From an uncultured Gammaproteobacteria bacterium (GTDB lineage Bacteria > Patescibacteriota > Patescibacteriia > UBA11705 > JABHMO01), in NCBI GenBank assembly GCA_964434235.1, contig CAYSUN010000001.1:18574-82573 (forward strand): a stretch of 64,000 bases of DNA, written 5' to 3'. A model generated the notes under the pieces. It worked only from the letters and a program-made list of their open reading frames with translations, was not told the origin of the DNA and ran no database searches. The stretch's first letter is position 1. Every line of letters begins with the position of its first letter. The position numbers and the translations under genes were made by a program. Positions 9,335 through 63,670 of this stretch are shown here, in pieces.

Positions 9335-9344
9335 AAACAAAAAA

Positions 9345-9982
9345 ACACTTAATCACTAAAACAAGAAATCAATAAAACATAAAAACAAGAAAACAAGGAA
9401 AAGAAAGATTCAAGTAACAAGCAAAACAGAACACGGAACACAAAACACGGAACATTAATCATAGAACATAGATCATAGAACAAACACTTAAGATGGTTTA
9501 GCACTGCCAACTCTTACCGCATCCCTTTAGGGTGCGTAGAACTTAAAACAAGGTTAAAAAGGCAGTAAAACCACTCCCTACCTGTCTATCGGTTTACATG
9601 CCGGAGGTATGCAGGCAGGCGTAATAAACACTTAAGCTGGTTTATTGCTTACTGTTTAACATTTAATGTTTAATATTTATTTACTTAATACTTAATCATA
9701 GAACATAGAATATAGATCATAGAGCATCAAATCAATAAATCATTTAAACACTTAATCACTAAAACAAGAAGTCAAGGAAAAGAAAGATCCAAGTAACAAG
9801 AAAAATTTAATACTTACTACCTGCCTGCCGGTTTACGTGCCGGAGGTGTGCAGGCAGGCTTAACACTTACTTTTTACTTTTAACTTTTAATTTTTAACTT
9901 TTTCAATTTACTGTTTATTTACTTAACACTTAATACTTAACACTTAACACTTACTTTTAACTTTTAACTTGTAACTTTTAAT
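9345..9982. repeat. tandem intergenic repeat block: two copies of a ~55-80 bp unit, each followed by a GC-rich hairpin, plus ACTTAA/CTTTTAA-type micro-repeats
   Basis: Unit ACACTTAATCACTAAAACAAGAA..GGAAAAGAAAGATYCAAGTAACAAG at 9345-9421 and 9748-9800; hairpin CCTGCCTGCCGGTTTACRTGCCGGAGGTRTGCAGGCAGG at ~9577-9619 and 9830-9858. Confidence 0.8.
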
Positions 9983-10561
9983 ATGGAACAAAGAAAAAAA
10001 ATTATATTAATCATTGTCGTTGGTGTTTTGATTATAGCGGGAATTATAACTTGGTTTGTAATTTCTGAAAAAAAAGCTAATTCAACATCAACGGAAACTG
10101 ATACTGTTGCTACTCTTTCGGGTAAACCAGTTGATGAAAAAAAAGCAATTGTGGCAGTAGCACCAACTCAAAAAGAAAAAGTGGAAGTTTCAGTTAAATC
10201 AGTTGTTACAACTTTTGTTGAGAGATTTGGAAGTTTTTCCAATCATGCTAATTTCTTTTCAGTCGAAGATATTGTACCAATGATGACAAGTTCTATGGCT
10301 AGTTGGGTACAAAATACTTATTTGCCAACATTAAGAAGAGAGTATGATCCACAAGGTTTTTATTATAGTGTACAAACAACTGCTCCTGTTGTGAGAATTT
10401 TGAAAGAAGAAGGTAATTATATGGAGATAATGGTAGAAACCCAAAGAGTTGAAGATAGAGAAGGACAAAAACAAAATTTTAATCAAGCTATTAAAATAGA
10501 TTTAGTTAAAAGTGGTGAGGAGTGGCTAGTTGATGGAGCATTTTGGCAAAAACAAGAATAA
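9983..10561 (+). CDS. hypothetical membrane-anchored protein
   Basis: N-terminal TM helix (ILIIVVGVLIIAGIITWFVI) followed by a soluble domain. Confidence 0.5.
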   Translation: MEQRKKIILIIVVGVLIIAGIITWFVISEKKANSTSTETDTVATLSGKPVDEKKAIVAVAPTQKEKVEVSVKSVVTTFVERFGSFSNHANFFSVEDIVPMMTSSMASWVQNTYLPTLRREYDPQGFYYSVQTTAPVVRILKEEGNYMEIMVETQRVEDREGQKQNFNQAIKIDLVKSGEEWLVDGAFWQKQE

Positions 10562-11258
10562 ACTAAAACGGCTATTCGAAAAAGTACTCAGTTATATTTT
10601 CCCAATTGAGTGTGTTAGCTGTCAAAAAGAGGGGGAGTATATTTGCTCCGCCTGTTTTGCTCAAATAAAACTGATTGAAAACTTTAGTTGTTTTATATGC
10701 AATCAAGGATCATTTGCCAAAGGTATTTGTCCCAAGTGTGAAGAAACCACTAGCATAGATCAAATAATTGTGGCTACAACTTATCAAGATAATATTGTTG
10801 GTAAGCTGGTTGAACAATTTAAGTACAATTATTTAGAAGATACCAAATATCTACTTAGTCGAGTCTTGATAAAACAAATTGAACAGAAAGAATTAACTAA
10901 TGTTTTGCGTAATAAAGTTTTAGTACCAGTGCCTTTGCACAAAAAAAGATTAGCGGAAAGAGGGTTTAATCAAGCGGAAGAATTAGCTAAATTATTAGCA
11001 GTTAAGTTTGATTCTCAGGTTAATACTACAATTGTGAGGAGAGTTGCTAACACAAAACAACAAGCAAAATTGAACAGAAAACAACGTTTGCAAAATCTTA
11101 TAAATGCTTTTAGAATAGATAGTGAAGGCAGTTGGCCTGAAGAAGTAATTCTCATAGACGATGTTTTAACTACGGGTACAACATTTACTGAGTTATGTAA
11201 ATGTCTTAAGAAAAATGGTGTTAAAAAAGTTGTTTGTATTGCTATTTGTCATGGATAA
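10530..11258 (+). CDS. comFC: ComF-family protein (phosphoribosyltransferase-type, ComFC-like)
   Basis: N-terminal Cys cluster (CVSCQKEGEYICSAC, CFICN, CPKCE) and C-terminal PRTase motif VILIDDVLTTGTT; true start may be an internal Met because the ORF overlaps the upstream gene. Confidence 0.7.
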   Translation: MMEHFGKNKNKLKRLFEKVLSYIFPIECVSCQKEGEYICSACFAQIKLIENFSCFICNQGSFAKGICPKCEETTSIDQIIVATTYQDNIVGKLVEQFKYNYLEDTKYLLSRVLIKQIEQKELTNVLRNKVLVPVPLHKKRLAERGFNQAEELAKLLAVKFDSQVNTTIVRRVANTKQQAKLNRKQRLQNLINAFRIDSEGSWPEEVILIDDVLTTGTTFTELCKCLKKNGVKKVVCIAICHG

Positions 11259-15281: not shown

Positions 15282-16016
15282 ATGAAAAAATATTTTGCTT
15301 GCATTATCTTTAGCTTTTTAGTGTGTCTTAATGTTCAAGCTGAAACTTTTGTAACTGATATTTATGTTGATCAGCCAACTATTAGTAAAGGTTATACTGT
15401 CGTGAGTGAGGATGAAAATTTTCGTTTAGGAATTTATCCAGAAGTTTTAGCCAAAGAAACGAGAGTAGTAGTAAAACAATTTGACCAGAATGATTTTGTC
15501 TATCCTGAAAATTGGACTCCAATTAGTGATGTTTATGAATTTGATATTTTCAATAAACAAGCATTCCAAAACGAGAAACCTCTTATTATTAGAATTAAAA
15601 CACAAAAAGCATCAACTCATTTGAAGAAAATATTTTTCTGGAATGGTGTGATTGAACAATGGGTTGAATTGCCTTCGGAAACAGCTGACCTAGAAACAAT
15701 GAAATCAATTATTCATTTACCTTATGCGAAAATGGTTGTACTTGAAAATCAAGAAATATTAGGTATTGGTGATGCTAGCTGGTATGCTTATAAGGGTTGT
15801 ATGTGTGCGGCTTCACCTGATTATGCCAAAGGCACAAAGTTAAAAGTTAAAGATCTTGATACAAATAAGGAAATAGTTGTGACTGTAAATGATTACGGTC
15901 CAGACAGAAGTATTTTTCCAGAGCGAATTATTGATTTGGATAAAGTTGCATTTCAAGAATTAGGGAAATTAAGCTGTGGCGTCTTGAAAAATATATTAGT
16001 TACGGAAATAAAATAA
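15282..16016 (+). CDS. secreted RlpA-like double-psi beta-barrel (DPBB) protein
   Basis: Signal peptide; C-terminal DASWYAYKGCMCAASPDYAKGTKLKV..VTVNDYGPDRSIFPERIIDLDKVAFQELG matches the RlpA/DPBB_1 consensus (aSWYG..tAAh..lp.gt.v.VtN..nGk.v.VrvnDRGP...gRiiDLS.aAf..L). Confidence 0.65.
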   Translation: MKKYFACIIFSFLVCLNVQAETFVTDIYVDQPTISKGYTVVSEDENFRLGIYPEVLAKETRVVVKQFDQNDFVYPENWTPISDVYEFDIFNKQAFQNEKPLIIRIKTQKASTHLKKIFFWNGVIEQWVELPSETADLETMKSIIHLPYAKMVVLENQEILGIGDASWYAYKGCMCAASPDYAKGTKLKVKDLDTNKEIVVTVNDYGPDRSIFPERIIDLDKVAFQELGKLSCGVLKNILVTEIK

Positions 16017-16025
16017 AAATAAAAT

Positions 16026-16706
16026 ATGATAAGGTTTCGACAAGTTACAAAATTTTATGAGCCAGATACTTATGCGCTCAAAGGTGTTAATATCCACATA
16101 AAACAAGGAGAGTTTGTTTCGATTATTGGACAAAGTGGAAGTGGTAAAACAACTTTAGTGAAATTATTAACAGCTGAGGAAACTTTAACAGACGGTTCAC
16201 TTAATTTGAGTGGTTGGGATATTTCCAAAATTCATTATCGAGAGATCCCTTTACTTAGACGCCAAATAGGCGTGATTTTTCAGGATTATAAGTTGTTAGC
16301 TCAAAAAACTGTATACGAAAATATTGCGTTTGCTTTGGAGGCGTGTGGTGCTCCACATAAAAAAATAAAAGCAATTATTCCACAAATTTTAAGAGTTGTT
16401 AACCTTTCAAATAAAGCTGATCGTTATCCGAAGCAACTTTCAGGTGGAGAACAACAAAGAGTTGGGATTGCTCGATCTTTGATTCATAGACCAAAAATTT
16501 TGGTGGCGGATGAGCCAACAGGTAATTTGGATTTGACTAATACTCGGGAAATTGTTGATTTGCTAAAAAAGATTAACGAACTTGGCACAACTGTGATGTT
16601 AGTTACGCATGATCGTGATGTTGTAAATATGCTAAAAAAACGGGTGATTGTTTTGGATCGCGGGCAAGTAGTCAGTGATCAAAAGGTTGGTCGATATGTT
16701 ATGTAG
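16026..16706 (+). CDS. ftsE: cell-division ABC ATPase FtsE
   Basis: Walker A GQSGSGKTTL, ABC signature LSGGEQQRVGIARSL, Walker B ILVADEPTGNLD; followed directly by ftsX. Confidence 0.85.
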   Translation: MIRFRQVTKFYEPDTYALKGVNIHIKQGEFVSIIGQSGSGKTTLVKLLTAEETLTDGSLNLSGWDISKIHYREIPLLRRQIGVIFQDYKLLAQKTVYENIAFALEACGAPHKKIKAIIPQILRVVNLSNKADRYPKQLSGGEQQRVGIARSLIHRPKILVADEPTGNLDLTNTREIVDLLKKINELGTTVMLVTHDRDVVNMLKKRVIVLDRGQVVSDQKVGRYVM

Positions 16707-28657: not shown

Positions 28658-29989
28658 TTATAATAAATTTAATAATTGATTAACTTCTGTAACTTGAATA
28701 GAATTATTTTGTTTTTTAGGAATTATAATATTTTTAAATCCTAATTTTTTAGCTTCCTGAACTCTTTTTTCTAAATTGATAACCGACCGAACTTCACCAC
28801 CAAGTCCAATTTCACCTATGGCAATAGTATCTTTGCTAATGGGTTTATTTCTGAAAGCTGAAATAATAGCGAGAGCAACAGCTAGATCAATAGCTGGTTC
28901 AGTTACTTTTAATCCGCCGACAATATTTAAATGAATATCTTGATTGTTTAGATTGATATTCGCTCTTTTGAATAAAACGGCTGAAAGCATTTGCAATCTA
29001 TTTTGATCGTAGCCCGACGTTTTTCTTTGCGGATAACCAAAAATAGTTGGAGTGACCAGAGCTTGGACTTCAATCAGAAAAGCTCGAGTACCTTCCATAA
29101 AACAGGAAGTTACAGTTCCAGGTGTGATATTTGTTTCATTGGAAAGGAATGCTTTTGTTGGATCTTTTACTTCAGCTAAACCTTTGTCCGTCATTTCAAA
29201 AACCCCGATTTCATTAGTTGAGCCAAAACGATTTTTACTACTTCGAAGTAATCGGAAACCGTGTAATTTATCTCCTTCCAAGTATAAAACTGTGTCAACT
29301 AAATGTTCTAATGTTTTTGGGCCAGCCACCGAGCCATCTTTAGTAACGTGCCCAGTAATTAAAATTGGGATGTTGTTTTGTTTGGCTGTTTGCAAAAGTT
29401 TAACGGTGCAAGCTCGTATTTGGCTAACATTGCCTGATTCAGAATCAACATCTGATGAATAAACAGTTTGAATTGAGTCAATTATTGCGATGCTGGGGTT
29501 GATTGTTTTTATAGCCACGCAAACTTCTTCAATGTTTGTTTCACTTAAAAATTTTAAATTGATAGGTTTATAACCCAGTCGATCAATTCGAAGTTTTATT
29601 TGGCTGGCAGACTCTTCACCTGAAATATAAAGCAGGGGAGCGTTTTGATTTTCTAGACTTTGCAATATTTGTAGAACTAGAGTTGATTTTCCGATACCTG
29701 GTTCGCCACCGAGAAGAGTAATGCTTCCTTTGACAATTCCACCACCAAAGATTTGATCAATTTCTACTAAATTGGTTTTCATTCTTTCAAAGTGTTCAAG
29801 TTTAATGTCGTTAAAATCAGTTAATTTCCCAGAGTCAAATTGTAGTTCTTGTTTTTTTGATTTTTTGATTTTTTGATTTACTGACTCTTGAATTGTTCCC
29901 CAAGCACCACACTCAAGACAGCGTCCTGACCACTTAGGAAACTGTGCATCGCATTTTGAACAGGTGAAGATTGTTTTAATTTGAGCCAT
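28658..29989 (-). CDS. radA: DNA repair protein RadA/Sms
   Basis: N-terminal zinc finger CSKCDAQFPKWSGRCLECGAW, Walker A GGEPGIGKSTL, RadA signature KNRFG, Lon-protease-like C-terminal domain. Confidence 0.9.
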   Translation of the reverse strand: MAQIKTIFTCSKCDAQFPKWSGRCLECGAWGTIQESVNQKIKKSKKQELQFDSGKLTDFNDIKLEHFERMKTNLVEIDQIFGGGIVKGSITLLGGEPGIGKSTLVLQILQSLENQNAPLLYISGEESASQIKLRIDRLGYKPINLKFLSETNIEEVCVAIKTINPSIAIIDSIQTVYSSDVDSESGNVSQIRACTVKLLQTAKQNNIPILITGHVTKDGSVAGPKTLEHLVDTVLYLEGDKLHGFRLLRSSKNRFGSTNEIGVFEMTDKGLAEVKDPTKAFLSNETNITPGTVTSCFMEGTRAFLIEVQALVTPTIFGYPQRKTSGYDQNRLQMLSAVLFKRANINLNNQDIHLNIVGGLKVTEPAIDLAVALAIISAFRNKPISKDTIAIGEIGLGGEVRSVINLEKRVQEAKKLGFKNIIIPKKQNNSIQVTEVNQLLNLL

Positions 29990-36699: not shown

Positions 36700-37012
36700 T
36701 AGATCGAAATTACATGAAAAATATTAATATCTAAAATTAACAGATATTATTTTGAAATACGGTCTTTGTTTTTGTATTTTCTGTTAATATTGTATAATAA
36801 TTATACTTTAGCGTCAAAAGCAAAAGTGGGTAAATACACAAGAAATCAAAAAACCAAGAAAACAAGAAAGCAAGAAAGTATGAAAGCAAATACTTAGCCT
36901 TTGTAAAGTATCTTAAGCTACCCTTTGTTTCTTAGTTTCTTATTTCTTTATTTCTTTATTTCTTTTTAACTCACTATTCATTACTTATTTACTTAACACT
37001 TAACTTAACTCT
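36700..37012. repeat. divergent promoter region rich in CAAGAAA/TTTCTTG and TACTTAACACTTAAC word repeats
   Basis: Same repeat vocabulary as the 9.3-10.0 kb block. Confidence 0.6.
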
Positions 37013-38125
37013 ATGAAAAAATTTATTTTGGTTTTGATTTTATGTTTGTTGGCTATTCCAGCTGTTACTTTAGCGGGTGGATCTTCAGATGAAAATGTTT
37101 TTATTCCAAAAGAACAAGTAATTTCTGATAATTATTTTGTTATTGGTAATACAGTTGATATTTCAGGTACATTAGAAAAAGATGCTTACATTATCGGACA
37201 AAATGTCGTAATTAGTGGAACTATTAAAGGTGATTTGATTGGCGTTGCTAACAGTTTAAGAATTGACGGAGTAGTTGAGGGTAATGTTCGATTTTTAGCT
37301 TCTGAAATGGATATCAAGGGTGAAGTTTATAAAAATATTACAGTTGCTTCTGGTAATTTAGTTGTTTTAGGCAAATTAAATCAAGATTTAATTGGAGCAG
37401 TTGGTTCTGCTGATTTACAAGGCGAAATGTTGGGGAATGTAAATCTTGTGGCTAGCAAAGTAAATGTGGATAAAAATATTGCTGGTAATTTATCATTACG
37501 TTTAGATGAAAATGGGACAATGTCTTTTGCTGAAGAAGTGGAAATTGGAGGAAATTTAGCTTATTCTCCAATTAAAAAGGAAGTTGAGGGTTTATCTGGA
37601 GTAACGGTTGTAGGAGAAACGAAGTTATTGAAAATAAATAAAAGTCTTAATATTAACAAAGCGTATAATTATATTTATTTATATAGTCGAATTGCTTATT
37701 TTTTATCTTTGTTGATGATAGTTTTAGTAATGTTAAGTTTCATGAAAAAATTTACTGTTCAGTTATCTTCACTTTTAGCCAAAGAACCACTTAGATGTTT
37801 TAATAAAGGTTTTTGGTTTGTAATTTTAGTTCCGCTTGTTTGTTTGCTCTTGTTGTTCACTTTGGTTGGTTTGCCATTGGCCGGGATACTTATGGCTTTG
37901 TATATTATAGTTTTTTATATTAGTAAAATTTTTGTTGGGTTAGCAGTTGGTATGGTTGTCTTGAAACAAGATTTTACAAAAGCAAAGTTAATTTGGCCAG
38001 CAGTGTTAGGTGTATTTTTAGTTGTAATTGGAGTTTCAATACCATTTATTGGTTTTCTGGTTAACTTATTGCTAACTTCCGCTGGGTTTGGAGCGCTTTA
38101 TATAATTTTGAAAAGGGAAAAGTAA
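37013..38125 (+). CDS. membrane protein with N-terminal signal, bactofilin-like beta-helical repeat region, and C-terminal multi-TM domain
   Basis: Repetitive G-x-hydrophobic pattern (GNTVDISGTLEKDAYIIGQNVVISGTIKGDLIGVANSLRIDGVVEGNV..) typical of DUF583/bactofilin-type beta-helix; ~5 TM helices in the C-terminal 150 aa. Confidence 0.4.
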   Translation: MKKFILVLILCLLAIPAVTLAGGSSDENVFIPKEQVISDNYFVIGNTVDISGTLEKDAYIIGQNVVISGTIKGDLIGVANSLRIDGVVEGNVRFLASEMDIKGEVYKNITVASGNLVVLGKLNQDLIGAVGSADLQGEMLGNVNLVASKVNVDKNIAGNLSLRLDENGTMSFAEEVEIGGNLAYSPIKKEVEGLSGVTVVGETKLLKINKSLNINKAYNYIYLYSRIAYFLSLLMIVLVMLSFMKKFTVQLSSLLAKEPLRCFNKGFWFVILVPLVCLLLLFTLVGLPLAGILMALYIIVFYISKIFVGLAVGMVVLKQDFTKAKLIWPAVLGVFLVVIGVSIPFIGFLVNLLLTSAGFGALYIILKREK

Positions 38126-38228
38126 AAAGTAAAGAAACAAACAGTGTTAAGTATTAAGTGTTAAGTATTAAGTATTAAGTAAATTTGTAATATTCGTAGA
38201 TTCGTAGCTAATTCGTAATTTGTAAACT

Positions 38229-45779: not shown

Positions 45780-45925
45780 ACAATGATTTTGCATAAAAAC
45801 TAATTACGAATCAGCTACTAATCTACAAATTACAAATTACGAATCAGCTACTAATCTACAAATTTACGGATTGAAAATTTAAAATAAAAAATACAAATTT
45901 AAAATAAAAAATAAAAATTGCAAAT
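45780..45925. repeat. tandem ~30-bp repeat TTACGAATCAGCTACTAATCTACAAATTACAAA (x2) plus AAATTTAAAATAAAAAATA (x2)
   Basis: Exact tandem duplication; related copies at 38190-38228 and 56993-57110. Confidence 0.75.
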
Positions 45926-49100: not shown

Positions 49101-49365
49101 AGTGTTGAGTGAAAAAAAGTTAAAAGGCTTGCCCTGAACTTAACGTCTTATAGCGTTATAGTTCGGGGTAAAAGTTAAAAGTAAGTGTTAAGCCTGCCTG
49201 CCGGCAGGCAGGTATTAAGTAATAAATTTTTCTTGTTACTCGTTACTTGAATCCTTCTTTTCCTTGTTTTCTTGTTTTTATGTTTTATTGATTTCTTGTT
49301 TTAGTGGTTAAGTGTTAAAATGATTTCTTGATTTGTTGTTTTCTTGTTTTCTTGATTAAAAATGT
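49101..49365. repeat. inverted copy of the 9.3-10.0 kb repeat unit plus the collapsed palindrome CCTGCCTGCCGGCAGGCAGG
   Basis: 49232-49315 is nearly exactly the reverse complement of 9345-9421; palindrome at 49193-49212. Confidence 0.8.
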
Positions 49366-57126: not shown

Positions 57127-59145
57127 ATGAATATAACTGAATCGAAAAATCGTTTGGAGAAATTAAAAGATCAGCTTCGAGAGACTGATCACGCTTATTA
57201 TACTTTGGATAAGCCGATTATGTCTGATTCAGCAAGAGATAGTTTGAAAGATGAAATTGAAAAAATCGAGAAACAGTTTCCAAATTTAATTACTTCAGAT
57301 TCACCAACTCAGAGAATCGGTGGTCGAGCTTTGGGTCGATTCAAAAAAGTTAAACATGAAATTCCTAAATATTCTTTAGATGATGTTTTTAGTTATGAAG
57401 AAGTTCGCGAATTTGATGAACGAGTAAAAAGATTTTTGAAAATTCCGATTAACTCAGACCTAGAATATACTTGCGAATTGAAAATTGATGGTTTGAATAT
57501 GTCTTTTCATTATAAAGATGGTTTATTTGAACGAGCAGTTACTCGAGGTGATGGTGTGCTTGGCGAGGACGTTTCTCATACTGTTAAGACGATTAAAAGT
57601 TTACCTTTGAAATTAAATAAAAATGTTGATATTGAACTTGGTGGTGAAGTTTATATGCCAACCAAAAGTTTTGAAAAGTTAAACAAAAAAGGCCCAATTC
57701 AATTTGCTAATCCGAGAAATGCGGCCGCTGGTACGGTGCGCCAATTAGATCCAATGGTGGCTGCTTCTCGAGATTTAGATATTTTTTGTTGGGCTATCTA
57801 TAAGTTAAAAGTTAAAAGTGAAAAGTTAAAAGTAAATACTCAGGTTGAAATGCTTGAAAAAATGAAAGAGCTTGGATTTAAAGTTAATCCAGAATACAAA
57901 AAAGTAAATAATATTGAAGAAGCAATTAAATTCTGTGAAAGTTGGCAAGACAAAAGAGCTAAACTTCCTTATGAAATTGATGGAATTGCGATCAAGGTAA
58001 ATCGAATTGATTGGCAAGAACGATTAGGCCGAGCATCAAAATATGTTCGCTGGGCTACAGCTTATAAATTTCCAGCCGAAGAAGCGACTTCTGTAATTGA
58101 AAATATTGTTTGGCAAGTTGGTCGAACTGGCGCCTTGACTCCAGTTGCTCATTTAACGCCAGTTAGTTTAGCTGGGTCGATTGTCAGTCGGGCAACTTTG
58201 CATAATATTGATGAATTAAGAGAAAAAGATATTAGAATAGGCGACACAGTAATTTTGCATAAAGCTGGAGATATTATTCCAGAAATTATTAAACCATTAC
58301 TCAAATTAAGAACTGGAAAACAAAAAAAAGTGGAAGCACCAAAAAATTGTCCGATTTGTCAGGCGAAAGTTGAAAGGATGGATGGTGAGTCAGCAATTCG
58401 TTGTACAAATAAAAATTGTTTTGCTCAAGATCAAGAAAGATTAATTCATTTTGTTTCGCGTAAAGGTTTTGATATTGATGGTTTTGGAGAAAAAATTGTT
58501 GAACAATTAATGCTGGAAAAGTTGGTTACAAATTTTTGTGATATTTTCGAACTTAAAAAAGGTGACTTGCAAGTGCTAGATCGTTTTGCGGAAAAATCAG
58601 CTGAAAATTTAGTTCAAGCTATTGAAAAAAGCAAATCTGTTTTGTTAAGTAAATTAATTTTTGCTTTAGGCATTCGTTATGTAGGCGAAGAAAATGCTAG
58701 CTTACTAGCCAAACAATATTCCGATCGAACAATTTCTATGTTTTTAAAAAACATTAAGCAAGCAAAAGTTACTGATTTGGAAGAAATTGAAGGTGTTGGT
58801 AAAATTGTTGCTCAAGCAGTTTTTGATTATTTTCACAATGAAGATAATTTACAAAAACTATTAAAACTTGAAGAACTTGGTGTTGTTTTGAAAAGAGTAG
58901 AAGTTTCACAAGTAAAATCCTCAGTCTTTGGAAAAACTTTTGTTTTAACTGGTAGTTTAGTCAGTTTATCCAGAGATGAAGCCAAGGCTTTGATTAAATT
59001 AGCTGGAGGTAAAGTTAGCTCGACTGTGAGTGCTAAAACTGATTACCTTGTTGTTGGTGATGAACCGGGTTCTAAATACAAAAAAGCAGTAGAATTAAAA
59101 GTGAAAATACTTGAAGAAAAAGAATTCATGAGTTTGATTAAATAA
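57127..59145 (+). CDS. ligA: NAD-dependent DNA ligase LigA
   Basis: Adenylation motif CELKIDGL, OB fold, Zn finger CPICQAKVERMDGESAIRCTNKNC, HhH, C-terminal BRCT (GKTFVLTGSL..); contains an in-frame repeat-derived insert at ~57795-57840. Confidence 0.9.
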   Translation: MNITESKNRLEKLKDQLRETDHAYYTLDKPIMSDSARDSLKDEIEKIEKQFPNLITSDSPTQRIGGRALGRFKKVKHEIPKYSLDDVFSYEEVREFDERVKRFLKIPINSDLEYTCELKIDGLNMSFHYKDGLFERAVTRGDGVLGEDVSHTVKTIKSLPLKLNKNVDIELGGEVYMPTKSFEKLNKKGPIQFANPRNAAAGTVRQLDPMVAASRDLDIFCWAIYKLKVKSEKLKVNTQVEMLEKMKELGFKVNPEYKKVNNIEEAIKFCESWQDKRAKLPYEIDGIAIKVNRIDWQERLGRASKYVRWATAYKFPAEEATSVIENIVWQVGRTGALTPVAHLTPVSLAGSIVSRATLHNIDELREKDIRIGDTVILHKAGDIIPEIIKPLLKLRTGKQKKVEAPKNCPICQAKVERMDGESAIRCTNKNCFAQDQERLIHFVSRKGFDIDGFGEKIVEQLMLEKLVTNFCDIFELKKGDLQVLDRFAEKSAENLVQAIEKSKSVLLSKLIFALGIRYVGEENASLLAKQYSDRTISMFLKNIKQAKVTDLEEIEGVGKIVAQAVFDYFHNEDNLQKLLKLEELGVVLKRVEVSQVKSSVFGKTFVLTGSLVSLSRDEAKALIKLAGGKVSSTVSAKTDYLVVGDEPGSKYKKAVELKVKILEEKEFMSLIK

Positions 59146-59764: not shown

Positions 59765-59921
59765 TGTAATTTCACAGTTTATTGTTTATTGCTTATTTAT
59801 TTTTTACTCACGACCCGCCTACCGGCCGGCTCACAACTTAATTCTTACCTACTTAACACTTAATACTTAATACTTATTTACTCACCATTAACACGTTAAA
59901 TATGGACGCAGGTATGTTATT

Positions 59922-61814: not shown

Positions 61815-63020
61815 ATGAAAAAAATTTTAATTATTATTTTCGCAATGTTATTATTGATGCCAAGTTTAAGTCCTGCTTTGGCTAGTACGTCCGATTTATC
61901 GATTGATGTGGGCAATGTTCGTTTTTCAAAAAATACAAATAATTTATTAGTGGGTGATACTGTGCGGGTTTATGCTGCTGTAGCCAATAATGGAGATACT
62001 GACGCGCTTGGCTATATTGCTTTTTATATTAATAATGAAACAACAATGATCGGTAGTGCTGAAGTTTCAGTTTTAGCGGGTGGCTATTATGACGAAGTTT
62101 ATGTTGATTTTACTGTGCCTGATGATGATTTCCGTTTGTTGGTTAGTCTTTTATCTGTTGTGCCAACTGATTCAAATTTGAATAATAATAATATTCTTAC
62201 TCAAAAGTTTAATGTTCAGGGAGATAATGATGGTGACGGAATTGGTGATGATACTGACGCTGATGATGATAATGATTCTTTAACGGATGCTCAAGAAATT
62301 CAAATGGGAACAGATCCATTGCTGAGGGACACAGATGGCGATGGTGTTTTGGATGCGGATGATTTATATCCTTTAGACCCCAATAAATACAAAGATGAAC
62401 CAATTGTAATCTCGCCCGAACCAGAGCCAGAAATAAATCCAGAACCAGTCCCTCAACCTAAACCAGTACAAAAAGCTTACATTCAACCAGTTGTAAAAGT
62501 AGTGGAAAATAGCAATAAAGAACCTGAAAGTACAGAACCAATTTTGGTGGAAGATTTTTATAATTCACCGGCCGTTGAACTTTTGCAAGAAGTGAAAATT
62601 AATGTTAATCAGATAAACTGGAATACTTATAGTTTTAATTTTGATACAAATATAATGGATTTAAATATTGATAGTTTAGAGTATCAATGGATTTTTGGCG
62701 ATGGCACGGATAGTCCTAAAAACACTGAGCATCGCTTTCGTGGGACTGGGCAATATTTTGTAACGTTAAAAGTTAAAGGTCCATTTAATAATTTTATATA
62801 TGACAATGTAACGATTGATGTTGAGTTTTGGTCAGTTTATAATTATTGGTTGTGGATTATTTTATTGGTGTTTATAACTATTGGTTTTTTGTACACTTAT
62901 GAATTTAAACACACAAGTGGTAAACTAAATTCTAAAAATGAACCAAGAAAAGTTGTAGGTAATGATGAATTGAGAAAGCCTAAAAAAAGAAAAATAGAAG
63001 AAGATAAATCAGAAAATTAA
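61815..63020 (+). CDS. surface protein with TSP3-like Ca-binding Asp repeats and PKD-like domain, C-terminal TM anchor
   Basis: Signal peptide; DGDGIGDDTDADDDNDSLTD..DTDGDGVLDADD; PKD-like WIFGDGTDSPKNTEHRFRGTGQYFVTLKV; C-terminal TM YWLWIILLVFITIGFLY + KK-rich tail. Confidence 0.6.
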   Translation: MKKILIIIFAMLLLMPSLSPALASTSDLSIDVGNVRFSKNTNNLLVGDTVRVYAAVANNGDTDALGYIAFYINNETTMIGSAEVSVLAGGYYDEVYVDFTVPDDDFRLLVSLLSVVPTDSNLNNNNILTQKFNVQGDNDGDGIGDDTDADDDNDSLTDAQEIQMGTDPLLRDTDGDGVLDADDLYPLDPNKYKDEPIVISPEPEPEINPEPVPQPKPVQKAYIQPVVKVVENSNKEPESTEPILVEDFYNSPAVELLQEVKINVNQINWNTYSFNFDTNIMDLNIDSLEYQWIFGDGTDSPKNTEHRFRGTGQYFVTLKVKGPFNNFIYDNVTIDVEFWSVYNYWLWIILLVFITIGFLYTYEFKHTSGKLNSKNEPRKVVGNDELRKPKKRKIEEDKSEN

Positions 63021-63034
63021 AATTAAAAATAAAA

Positions 63035-63553
63035 ATGAAAAAGTATTTTGTAGTTTTTACCTGTTTATTTGTTTTGTTACTTAGCCCAGCTTTGGCTAAG
63101 CAAAGTTATAATTTAACTTTGGGTGAGGCTTATATTAAATATAATCAAATCGGTTGGCAGAATTATGAATTTTATGTAATTACTGATTTGGAAAATAAAG
63201 ATGGCTTAACTTATGAATGGACGTTTGATAATAAATCCTCGTTTTCATCAGAAAAAGTAAGGTATTTTTTTGCCAAAGGCGAACATACTATAAAATTAAA
63301 AGTTGAAGATAACTATGGTAATGTTCGTTACGATACAGTTCGTTTGAATATTCAGTTTTGGTCGTTGAAAAATAATTGGTTTTGGTGGGTGGCGTATTTA
63401 ATAGTTGTGATGTTAATTATCTATTATTGGGCGGCCAAAATAATGTATTTACTTAATCGACCGAAAATAAGTAAAGAAGCAAGATACTTTTTGGACTTAC
63501 TGGATGAACATGGCTGGATTGATGAAATTATAAAACATCACGCAAAAAAATAA
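63035..63553 (+). CDS. small PKD-like domain surface protein, paralogue of the C-terminal part of the upstream gene
   Basis: Signal peptide; YEWTFDNKSSF..HTIKLKVEDNYGN; C-terminal TM WFWWVAYLIVVMLIIYYW. Confidence 0.55.
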   Translation: MKKYFVVFTCLFVLLLSPALAKQSYNLTLGEAYIKYNQIGWQNYEFYVITDLENKDGLTYEWTFDNKSSFSSEKVRYFFAKGEHTIKLKVEDNYGNVRYDTVRLNIQFWSLKNNWFWWVAYLIVVMLIIYYWAAKIMYLLNRPKISKEARYFLDLLDEHGWIDEIIKHHAKK

Positions 63554-63554
63554 A

Positions 63555-63670
63555 TAAGTTGAAAGTAAAAAGTTAAAGGTTTATATAGAGAAAAATTATG
63601 TAAAAGTTAAATAGTTCAGATTGTCTTGGTAGTTTAACTTTATAAACTTGTAACTTGTAACTTTTCCCAA
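63555..63670. repeat. AAAGTTAAA / AACTTGTAACTT word-repeat region
   Basis: Shares AACTTGTAACTTTT with 9960-9980 and AAAGTTAAAAG with the ligA insert. Confidence 0.55.

Follow-up and report, generated by a model that had tools for sequence, protein, structure and literature searches.

The window, by which we mean the whole stretch of 64,000 nucleotides that was analysed, contains a ligA gene whose coding sequence holds a short tandem array of heptanucleotides. The features of the gene are as follows.

57127..59145, + strand: ligA, NAD+-dependent DNA ligase, 672 aa (ORF and homology)
57672..57683, + strand: the 12-mer TGAAAAGTTAAA, within the ligA codons for the conserved SFEKLNK (direct-repeat family D2)
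57802..57836, + strand: heptanucleotide tandem tract of five units in ligA (TRF and codon resampling)
57820, + strand: single G off the repeat consensus, making codon 232 GAA (Glu) (read directly)

The LigA ORF is intact and keeps every catalytic motif as well as the Zn finger, HhH and BRCT. E. coli LigA (2OWO) matches the window protein over residues 8-671 (E=3.6e-159), and Pfam, run on an identical database protein (P0001), gives PF22745, PF01653, PF03120, PF03119, PF12826 and PF00533. The domains run in the LigA order of Ia - NTase - OB - four-Cys Zn finger - HhH - BRCT, and motif I (KxDG), with its adenylated lysine, is accompanied by NTase motifs III, IIIa, IV and V, the motifs reading ELKIDG (K119), GGEVYM, FANPRNAAAG, EIDGIAIKVN and AYKFPAEE. 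Residues K119, D121, G122, E174, K290, K314 and C408/411/426/431 are invariant, and the fold of the protein agrees with LigA structures. The heptamer tract does not reveal a new ligase function.

A heptanucleotide tract in a LigA hairpin

The tract is 35 bases long (AAGTTAAAAGTTAAAAGTGAAAAGTTAAAAGTAAA) and consists of the units AAGTTAA AAGTTAA AAGTGAA AAGTTAA AAGTAAA; together with base 57837 it encodes, in frame, residues K226-N237 (KLKVKSEKLKVN), flanked by Y225 and T238. Tandem Repeats Finder (TRF) assigns it a period of 7, 4.6 copies, 92% matches and a score of 57. When synonymous codons were resampled with the peptide held constant and codon usage set to that of the window, period-7 identity averaged 0.57, as against 0.86 in the tract (P=0.002), and across 18,438 in-frame 36-nt coding windows from 58 ORFs an identity of at least 0.80 occurred only in four overlapping windows at the tract. 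The DNA is periodic beyond the demands of peptide and codon usage, and the initial annotation was right to see a repeat-derived, in-frame segment here. Its head-to-tail 7-nt units, which run beyond the chance length in the genome, also mark the tract as a long simple sequence repeat (LSSR), a kind with units of 5-11 nt.

A perfect (AAGTTAA)n would place an in-frame TAA stop at codon 232, and all frames of a perfect AAAGTTA repeat give K-V-K-S-stop-K-L; intergenic arrays of relatives also contain the variant unit AAAGTGA. The 12-mer TGAAAAGTTAAA at 57672-57683 is identical to 57819-57830 within the tract and lies in codons whose product, KSFEKLNK, is the clade consensus; it is a possible local template or source of microhomology for the tract. 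Rfam matched three tRNAs in the window and nothing at the tract or the arrays.

The segment had been placed between the adenylation and OB-fold regions. Its actual position is within the adenylation (NTase) domain, after motif IIIa (FANPRNAAAG) and before motif IV (EIDGIAIKV). An AF2 model predicts a strand at 218-229, a turn at K230-S231, a strand at 232-233 and a helix at 239-248, with pLDDT of about 79-83, and so agrees with the earlier suggestion of a loop in showing a strand-turn-strand extension of a hairpin; in the model, this hairpin is probably solvent-exposed, at the protein surface.

We compared hairpin length (CWAIY..TQ) in 74 LigA sequences, namely that of the window and 73 diverse ones, which included distant LigAs (at most 56% identity) from a genome-contig search with clade-alignment patterns of universal motifs. 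The length was 15 in 50 of the 74, with a range of 11-18 plus one outlier, and 19 in the window. On this comparison the bacterial hairpin normally has a nearly fixed length. The loop itself has 12 residues in the window against a clade mode of 6, with the consensus NGKELK, and the net gain of the hairpin is +6 relative to the clade, +4 relative to the bacterial mode, +3 relative to E. coli and +1 relative to T. filiformis, rather than the 11-14 inserted residues first supposed. Alignment to orthologues shows the segment to be unconserved in distant LigA and thus lineage-specific, as had been proposed. It is likely that the tract swaps the 6-residue turn of the clade for a 12-residue lysine-rich strand-turn-strand at the tip of the beta-hairpin. 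We saw no evidence for a function of the added residues; the four net positive charges in the loop might bring a modest gain in putative DNA affinity. Lineage-specific inserts and surface loops of variable length are known from LigA. A cyanobacterial LigA (L084), for example, has a 28-residue insert at the same hairpin; the position tolerates extra residues with catalytic motifs unaffected, although that insert, unlike the window loop, is a peptide without obvious periodicity.

Repeats at the same codons in relatives and in spacers

Tandem repeats of several kinds occupy the hairpin codons of related ligA genes.

L001 loop: AAAGTCA x3.9
L002 loop: AGTCCAA x3.4, 100% matches (heptamer AAAGTCC)
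L004 loop: AAAAGGG x3.7, 100% matches
L005 loop: 9-mer AAAACACAG x3.9
L006 loop: octamer CACGAAAA x5.9

Heptamer units that are 100% identical occur at the hairpin even in relatives with genes of 50% G+C, and the hairpin codons of the short-loop relatives that were examined contain no tandem repeats. Within this group of Patescibacteria, short tandem repeats with differing units have come to occupy these codons time and again. In four ligA genes of the heptamer clade every indel falls in the loop, with zero gaps across 1,995 nt elsewhere, and identity is 59-80% in the loop versus 82-92% outside it; the loop changes much faster than the remainder of the gene. Turnover of units and copies faster than that of the flanks, a further property of LSSRs, is seen in this way in related species, not in strains of the window species. 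Across 115 loci, unit-specific words were confined to a loop and, in the same or a sister genome, to the spacer directly preceding ligA; the heptamer array in that spacer of the relatives lies about 740 nt upstream of the loop.

All hairpin alleles, from 120 relatives and 27 metagenome loci, are in frame. The 27 loci came from a loop-region search of metagenome contigs, and none is nearer to the window than the relatives already known. A flank-anchored pattern for strain variants, TGTTGGGCTATCTAT N{9,39} ACTCAGGTTGAAATG, had 0 matches in metagenome and genome contigs, a 43-aa loop-centred protein search gave nothing usable, and the protein cluster of the window LigA has one member; with no strain-level ligA alleles found, copy-number polymorphism is unobserved in the window species.

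Related sequence lies between genes of the window itself.

9869..9981, - strand: intergenic array of the AAGTTAA-type heptamer family, 16 copies (TRF)
49116..49190, + strand: intergenic AAAGTTAAAAG words flanking a palindrome (word search)

There are 8 occurrences of the word AAAGTTAAAAG in the window versus 0.37 expected, a count reached by 0/100 shuffles. Four occurrences are intergenic (9877 and 9954 on the - strand, 49116 and 49171), two are in ligA and two in other ORFs. The sharing of words with intergenic repeats had been noted before, and these four matches confirm it, although 63560-63580, one of the places then cited, carries the related AAAGTAAAAAGTTAAAGG and not the exact word. Membership of the tract in the same heptamer family as the intergenic arrays is borne out by longer matches: the tract has in common with the array at 9869-9981 the 18-mer AAGTTAAAAGTTAAAAGT (at 9953) and a 16-mer (at 9873), its 26-mer matches 9869-9978 in that array with 2-3 mismatches where 0 matches are expected, and it shares the 15-mer AAAAGTTAAAAGTAA with position 49170. 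TRF gives ACTTTTA as the + strand consensus of the 9869-9981 array, which corresponds to AAAGTTA on the - strand, and the array ends directly upstream of an ATG at 9983. The words at 49116-49190 adjoin a G+C-rich palindrome, GCCTGCCTGCCGGCAGGCAGG, at 49192-49213. The 11-mer word is also present at 15836, in an ordinary K-L-K-V-K beta-strand of another ORF, so short matches can arise from codon usage alone.

In a window that is 89.5% coding, 18 period-7/8 arrays are intergenic, 2 are coding and 1 lies at an edge. Several unit families and periods, A-rich 7- and 8-mers, coexist in the genome. Arrays of the AAAGTNA family often stand just upstream of start codons, and the orientation of the arrays relative to downstream genes is inconsistent. 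The spacer immediately upstream of the window ligA has other units (ATTACGA/ATTACTA), so no nearby donor array is visible.

Comparison with known heptanucleotide repeats

In many bacteria, no class of long SSR is more abundant than heptanucleotide repeats, which are ascribed to polymerase slippage and rarely tolerated in ORFs (PMC4679880, citing Mrazek, 2007; PMC4692102). The arrays reported here resemble the heptanucleotide LSSRs of prokaryotes (Mrazek et al., 2007, cited through PMC4679880 and PMC4692102): head-to-tail 7-nt units exceed the length expected by chance, are mainly intergenic, as are 18/21 of the period-7/8 arrays in the window, and are rare in ORFs if the unit length cannot be divided by 3. 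The ligA array departs from LSSRs in lying in frame and centrally within the catalytic domain of an enzyme that is essential, and arrays at the ligA site do so in recurring, with units that differ, at identical codons of several lineages. In the literature searched, we found no description of Patescibacteria as hosts of heptanucleotide LSSRs.

TAACTGA repeats, of two to dozens of heptamers, are found in Beggiatoaceae, cyanobacteria and Bacteroidetes (MacGregor, 2015, PMC4679880), mostly a few nucleotides upstream of start codons and in a minority of cases inside ORFs (PMC4679880). As in those repeats, the 7-residue cyclic peptide is identical in any frame and one orientation is barred by stop codons. 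The units here are AAGTTAA/AAAGTNA and not TAACTGA, however, and the ligA tract, unlike TAACTGA repeats, requires a variant unit to avoid TAA. It is also internal to a conserved domain, whereas the intragenic TAACTGA arrays of BOGUAY mostly fall in hypothetical proteins or at the ends of proteins. A third comparison is with the three tandemly repetitive heptanucleotides of Calothrix PCC7601, GGGGA(T/C)T in Nostoc and GGGAATC in Xanthomonas (PMC4692102), which are likewise genome-wide intergenic tandem families of variable copy number, preferentially near ORF ends. Those heptamers are G-rich, with a G-quadruplex proposed, whereas the present arrays are rich in A and are predicted to lack structure.

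Origin and significance of the tract

The tract is probably a hypermutable heptanucleotide SSR of the AAAGTNA family that was seeded or refreshed from spacer arrays and that a permissive hairpin tolerates. Its creation and remodelling would come from slipped-strand mispairing, or from template switching (gene conversion), in which the loop and spacer arrays take part. Since a 7-nt unit cannot grow singly in an essential ORF, the array would change in 3-unit (21-nt) steps or a ready-made array would be copied in one step, and selection would retain the in-frame, stop-free products, which in the window would be reflected in the G at 57820. We infer both this mechanism and the direction of copying between arrays. 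That 7-, 8- and 9-mer units stand at the same codons and that indels in the heptamer clade are confined to the loop is more in keeping with a hotspot of slippage or template switching than with transposition, and the hairpin may have been hit repeatedly because it would be solvent-exposed and changes in its length would spare catalysis. Two other routes were dropped: a lone 21-nt local duplication leaves the 7-nt period inside each 21-mer unexplained, and unit-by-unit growth in situ would frameshift an essential gene at every step.

It is unlikely that a single ancient heptamer insertion took place in an ancestor that the P0012/21/22/28 clade shares with the window lineage, to be mostly lost by slippage deletion and kept periodic in the survivors through concerted evolution. 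The window loop does align in frame with that of L003, as GAAAAG[T/G]TAAAAGTAAA[T/A]AC[T/G]CAG, and this alignment with a separate heptamer clade makes one old insertion with many losses conceivable; the window, L001 and L003 loops share their frame, with GAA co-positioned and 3' junctions near-identical, and repeat tracts are readily deleted. An AAAGTNA array encodes the same cyclic peptide in every frame, however, so the shared frame is not independent evidence of homology, and the AAAGTGA unit is already present in spacer arrays. A single insertion would also require loops to have reverted independently, many times over, to precisely 6 residues. Bootstrapped NJ joined the heptamer clade with three short-loop lineages at 89% and never, in 200 replicates, exclusively with the window, in a crude tree whose poorly supported deep nodes leave room for a single insertion and in which the window's own placement has 51%.

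Selection at the protein level for a lysine-rich amphipathic hairpin, its periodicity a by-product of A+T-rich codon usage, strikes us as quite improbable. The genome is A+T-rich and favours AAA, TTA and GTT, the beta-strand at 15836 has KLKVK with the same words, and the resamples already average 0.57; yet the identity of the tract lies well outside those resamples and is unique among the coding windows, the identical heptamers at the site extend to genes of 50% G+C, and in the heptamer clade the indels of the gene are all concentrated at the hairpin.

We give very little credence to a discrete mobile repeat element (MITE- or REP-like) inserted into ligA, even though the same words occur in intergenic repeats, some of them adjoining a conserved G+C-rich hairpin, and mobility was likewise weighed for TAACTGA repeats (MacGregor, PMC4679880). 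Element mobility, which the initial annotation had read from the shared words, does not follow from them: what is shared is a tandem array and not a bounded element, in stretches of at most 18 nt made of tandem heptamers alone, and multiple bounded copies are lacking. The G+C hairpin module is missing from ligA, and relatives have other units and periods at the same site. Around the tract, terminal inverted repeats, a target-site duplication and an element boundary are all absent, and the search for flanking inverted or direct repeats returned only the heptamers themselves. The tract is a simple-repeat expansion of an ordinary kind in an unusual place, with no evidence of a jumping element, and reveals no new mobile element.

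Least credible is a functional nucleic-acid signal (a protein-binding site, internal promoter, frameshift site or phase-variation switch), for although family arrays often precede start codons, like the TAACTGA repeats proposed to be bound by a regulator (PMC4679880), and, as in contingency loci, the unit has a length not divisible by 3, a promoter and terminator scan found no such site at the tract, its RNA folds less than shuffles (z=+2.0), 120/120 alleles are in frame, array orientation follows no rule relative to downstream genes and ligA is a housekeeping gene.

The tract shows that a simple repeat with a unit length not divisible by three is able to survive within the catalytic domain of an enzyme that is essential and highly conserved, and that a single hairpin can serve again and again, in different lineages, as the place where repeats land or expand. 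The loops provide a natural map of insertion tolerance in LigA, and a caution for annotation and alignment pipelines, in which low-complexity Lys-rich peptides can pass for 'insertions'. They also offer a small system in which one can test whether genes in the reduced genomes of Patescibacteria receive sequence from intergenic repeat arrays. A broader proposal is that in this clade of Patescibacteria DNA passes between spacer arrays and coding sequence: heptamer or octamer arrays of spacers, the ligA-upstream array of relatives among them, would be the source of copies that template switching or gene conversion places in essential proteins, at permissive loops and linkers (the LigA hairpin, the RadA linker). 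The proposal is doubtful at present; if true, spacer-to-gene copying would be a recurrent, repeat-driven path to protein loop innovation in reduced genomes.

Position and periodicity of the ligA tract

The tract lies within a ligase gene identified from its open reading frame and homology.

57127-59145, + strand: ligA, NAD+-dependent DNA ligase, 672 aa
57802-57836, + strand: heptamer tract AAGTTAA AAGTTAA AAGTGAA AAGTTAA AAGTAAA, read from the sequence

The encoded protein aligns end to end with the LigAs of E. coli (2OWO; E=3.6e-159) and T. filiformis, and is complete for the catalytic motifs, four-cysteine zinc finger, HhH and BRCT. Tandem Repeats Finder reports the tract as a period-7 array of 4.6 copies with 92% matches, translated in frame as K226-L-K-V-K-S-E-K-L-K-V-N237 and flanked by Y225 and T238-Q239. 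Direct reading of tract and ORF bears out the sequence, frame and peptide given in the initial annotation, whose observation was largely correct. The 12-mer TGAAAAGTTAAA inside the tract (57819-57830) has an exact copy 137 nt upstream, at 57672-57683, where ligA encodes the conserved SFEKLNK; the pair may represent microhomology or a local template.

Among 18,438 in-frame 36-nt windows from the 58 called ORFs, period-7 identity of at least 0.80 was found only in four overlapping windows, all at the tract. The word AAAGTTAAAAG occurs 8 times in the window against 0.37 expected. When the tract peptide was held fixed and codons were drawn by the window's own codon usage, only 0.2% of 200,000 synonymous re-encodings reached the tract's period-7 identity of 0.86. 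Given this uniqueness, word excess and re-encoding result, the periodicity is a property of the DNA and goes beyond what a peptide rich in Lys, Leu and Val would bring in a genome rich in A+T, and the segment is repeat-derived, as initially proposed. With 2-3 mismatches, the tract's 26-mer core can also be found in the intergenic array at 9869-9978, against an expectation of no matches. Short matches by themselves are weak proof, since a 2.3-unit match in another ORF at 15836 (T-K-L-K-V-K-D-L) resembles ordinary coding sequence.

The initial annotation placed the segment between the adenylation and OB domains and counted 11-14 extra residues; both position and size need correction. The tract falls within the adenylation (NTase) domain, with motif IIIa (FANPRNAAAG) before it and motif IV (EIDGIAIKV) after it, and its residues align with E. 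coli LigA residues about 226-237. An AlphaFold2 model built on 30 relatives, which agrees with solved LigA structures, places a turn at K230-S231 between a strand (218-229) and a second, short one (232-233), followed by a helix at 239-248, with pLDDT of about 79-83; from this strand-turn-strand arrangement, the tract is predicted to lengthen a beta-hairpin. The loop between CWAIY and TQ is most commonly 6 residues in the 120 closest LigAs (55-73% identity; Falkowbacteria/Kuenenbacteria-like Patescibacteria) versus 12 in the window. In a diverse set of 74 LigAs (73 species-representative sequences and the window), the CWAIY..TQ segment is 15 in 50, ranging from 11 to 18 with one cyanobacterial outlier of 43, versus 19 in the window. 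Net gains are +6 over the clade norm, +4 over the bacterial mode, +3 over E. coli LigA and +1 over the T. filiformis enzyme. Conservation of the tract peptide across distant LigA orthologues, which the initial annotation named as refuting its proposal, was not seen, and the claim of lineage specificity stands. Of the 73 diverse LigAs, only one departs greatly in length: L084 (uncultured cyanobacterium, CAVPGX010000009.1), which has 28 residues, PQGWDLPSDAVDATQLDLLAGLNPHQKTVSAPLP, inserted at this hairpin.

Repeats at the same codons in relatives

We retrieved ligA DNA for relatives with long loops; no tandem repeat was found at the hairpin codons of the short-loop relatives examined.

Table. 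Loop repeats in ligA of relatives: locus (protein), repeat, gene G+C
L002 (P0022): AGTCCAA x3.4, 100% identical units; 51%
L004 (P0012): AAAAGGG x3.7, 100% identical units; 51%
L001 (P0028): AAAGTCA x3.9; 50%
L003 (P0021): 14-mer of two heptamers; 50%
L006 (P0004): octamer CACGAAAA x5.9; 39%
L005 (P0002): 9-mer AAAACACAG x3.9; 38%

In a bootstrapped NJ tree of LigA with the loop masked (200 replicates), the four heptamer carriers P0012, P0021, P0022 and P0028 formed a clade with 100% support, and this clade joined three short-loop lineages with 89% support. The window grouped exclusively with the heptamer clade in 0 of 200 replicates, and the octamer and 9-mer carriers made up a third group. 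A single old insertion followed by many later losses is a less likely alternative. In its favour, the loops of the window, L001 and L003 can be aligned in frame, and the NJ tree is crude; against it, many exact reversions to six residues would be needed, and it conflicts with the 89% node.

Across 1,995 aligned nt, the four heptamer-clade genes (82-92% identity) have zero gaps outside the loop; all indels fall inside it, where identity is 59-80%. These alignments show the behaviour of a simple-sequence repeat that is hypermutable and sits where changes are tolerated. In L005, ligA's other length-variable stretch, before motif IIIa, holds a second tandem array, AGCAAGACA x2.8 at 10559-10583, some 130 nt 5' of the one at the hairpin.

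Intergenic arrays and shared words

Period-7 and period-8 arrays are a feature of this genome. Of the 21 in the window with at least about three copies, 18 are intergenic, in a window of which 89.5% is coding sequence and 10.5% spacers. Many stop just 5' of start codons and may face either way with respect to the gene that follows; an ACTTTTA x16 array, for example, ends at 9981, ahead of an ATG at 9983. That array belongs to a 650-bp intergenic region (9335-9982) consisting almost entirely of short tandem arrays of differing units (AAAACAAT, AGAACAT, GTTTAAT, CATAGAA, AAATCAAT and ACTTTTA), with no Rfam match. Two copies of a composite unit, at about 9578-9637 and 9818-9871, also lie in the region; the unit includes a G+C-rich hairpin, and a simpler palindrome of that hairpin's stem occurs at 49192-49213. 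Further spacer arrays of several unit families lie at 36839-36965, 38143-38181, 45824-45917, 49254-49354 and 59836-59876.

Coding termini too are abutted or entered by arrays: at 38110-38133, GAAAAGGGAAAAGT followed by AAAAGTA units spans the 3' end of the gene at 37013-38125, and gene ends are overlapped at 16006-16026 and 62983-63042. A second coding tandem repeat with a unit not a multiple of 3 is the octamer AATCAAAA (x3.9, 95%) at 29849-29879, - strand, in radA (28658-29989). It encodes NQKIKKSKKQ, within the linker that follows the zinc finger of RadA, and its gap-free alignment to the S. pneumoniae RadA linker indicates no net insertion.

Words shared by the ligA tract and the intergenic arrays are an 18-mer at 9953 and a 16-mer at 9873, both on the - strand, and a 15-mer at 49170. 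Among 115 loci, GGAAAAGGGAAAAGT is confined to the P0012 loop and the ligA-upstream spacer of the same genome, AAAGTCCAAAGTC to the P0022 loop and its own upstream spacer, and AGTGAAAAGTCAAAAGTC to the P0028 loop and a sister genome's upstream spacer. These spacer arrays lie about 740 nt 5' of the loop, in the same orientation. Such unit-specific words suggest exchange between spacer and loop arrays, which may have run in either direction. The window's own ligA-upstream spacer carries units other than the tract's, and that of P0028 (L001, 2853-2990) has, in place of heptamer arrays, a long nested palindrome with outer arms ATCGCATGTATCCCGCTAAAG / CTTTAGCGGGATACATGCGAT and inner arms GGAGACCCGACG / CGTCGGGTCTCC.

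Origin of the tract

The initial annotation took the segment as evidence of element mobility, which over-reaches. No support was found for a bounded mobile element: a search around the tract found neither terminal repeats nor target duplication, and the G+C hairpin module beside some intergenic arrays is missing from ligA. Nor is there support for a regulatory, frameshifting or phase-variation role, as a scan found no promoter or terminator match at the tract, its RNA is less structured than shuffles, and every observed allele is in frame. Protein-level selection alone is contradicted by the rarity of equally periodic re-encodings and by the confinement of heptamer-clade indels to the loop.

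A perfect heptamer array encodes the same seven-residue cycle in every frame, and for AAAGTTA this cycle is K-V-K-S-stop-K-L. The tract's single departure from consensus, G57820, changes TAA to GAA. Relatives already carry the AAAGTGA variant unit in their spacer arrays, which makes import, as opposed to repair, a possible source of it. Unit-by-unit growth is impossible, because a single 7-nt gain or loss would frameshift an essential gene. We infer that the tract would change length by multiples of three units, or that a ready-made array would be copied in one step through template switching or gene conversion, with selection afterwards for products that stay in frame and lack stop codons. 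Such a mechanism is consistent with the shared words and with the relatives whose units are 100% identical.

In many bacteria, heptanucleotide arrays are described as outnumbering every other class of long simple-sequence repeat; they are chiefly intergenic, and polymerase slippage has been proposed as their cause (Mrazek 2007, as cited in PMC4679880 and PMC4692102). MacGregor (PMC4679880) reported TAACTGA arrays upstream of start codons, their orientation constrained by stop codons; a small number were intragenic, most of these at protein termini. The ligA tract is the same kind of object, from another unit family and another host group. Unlike the TAACTGA arrays, it is internal to a catalytic domain, at loop codons that have been occupied recurrently across lineages.
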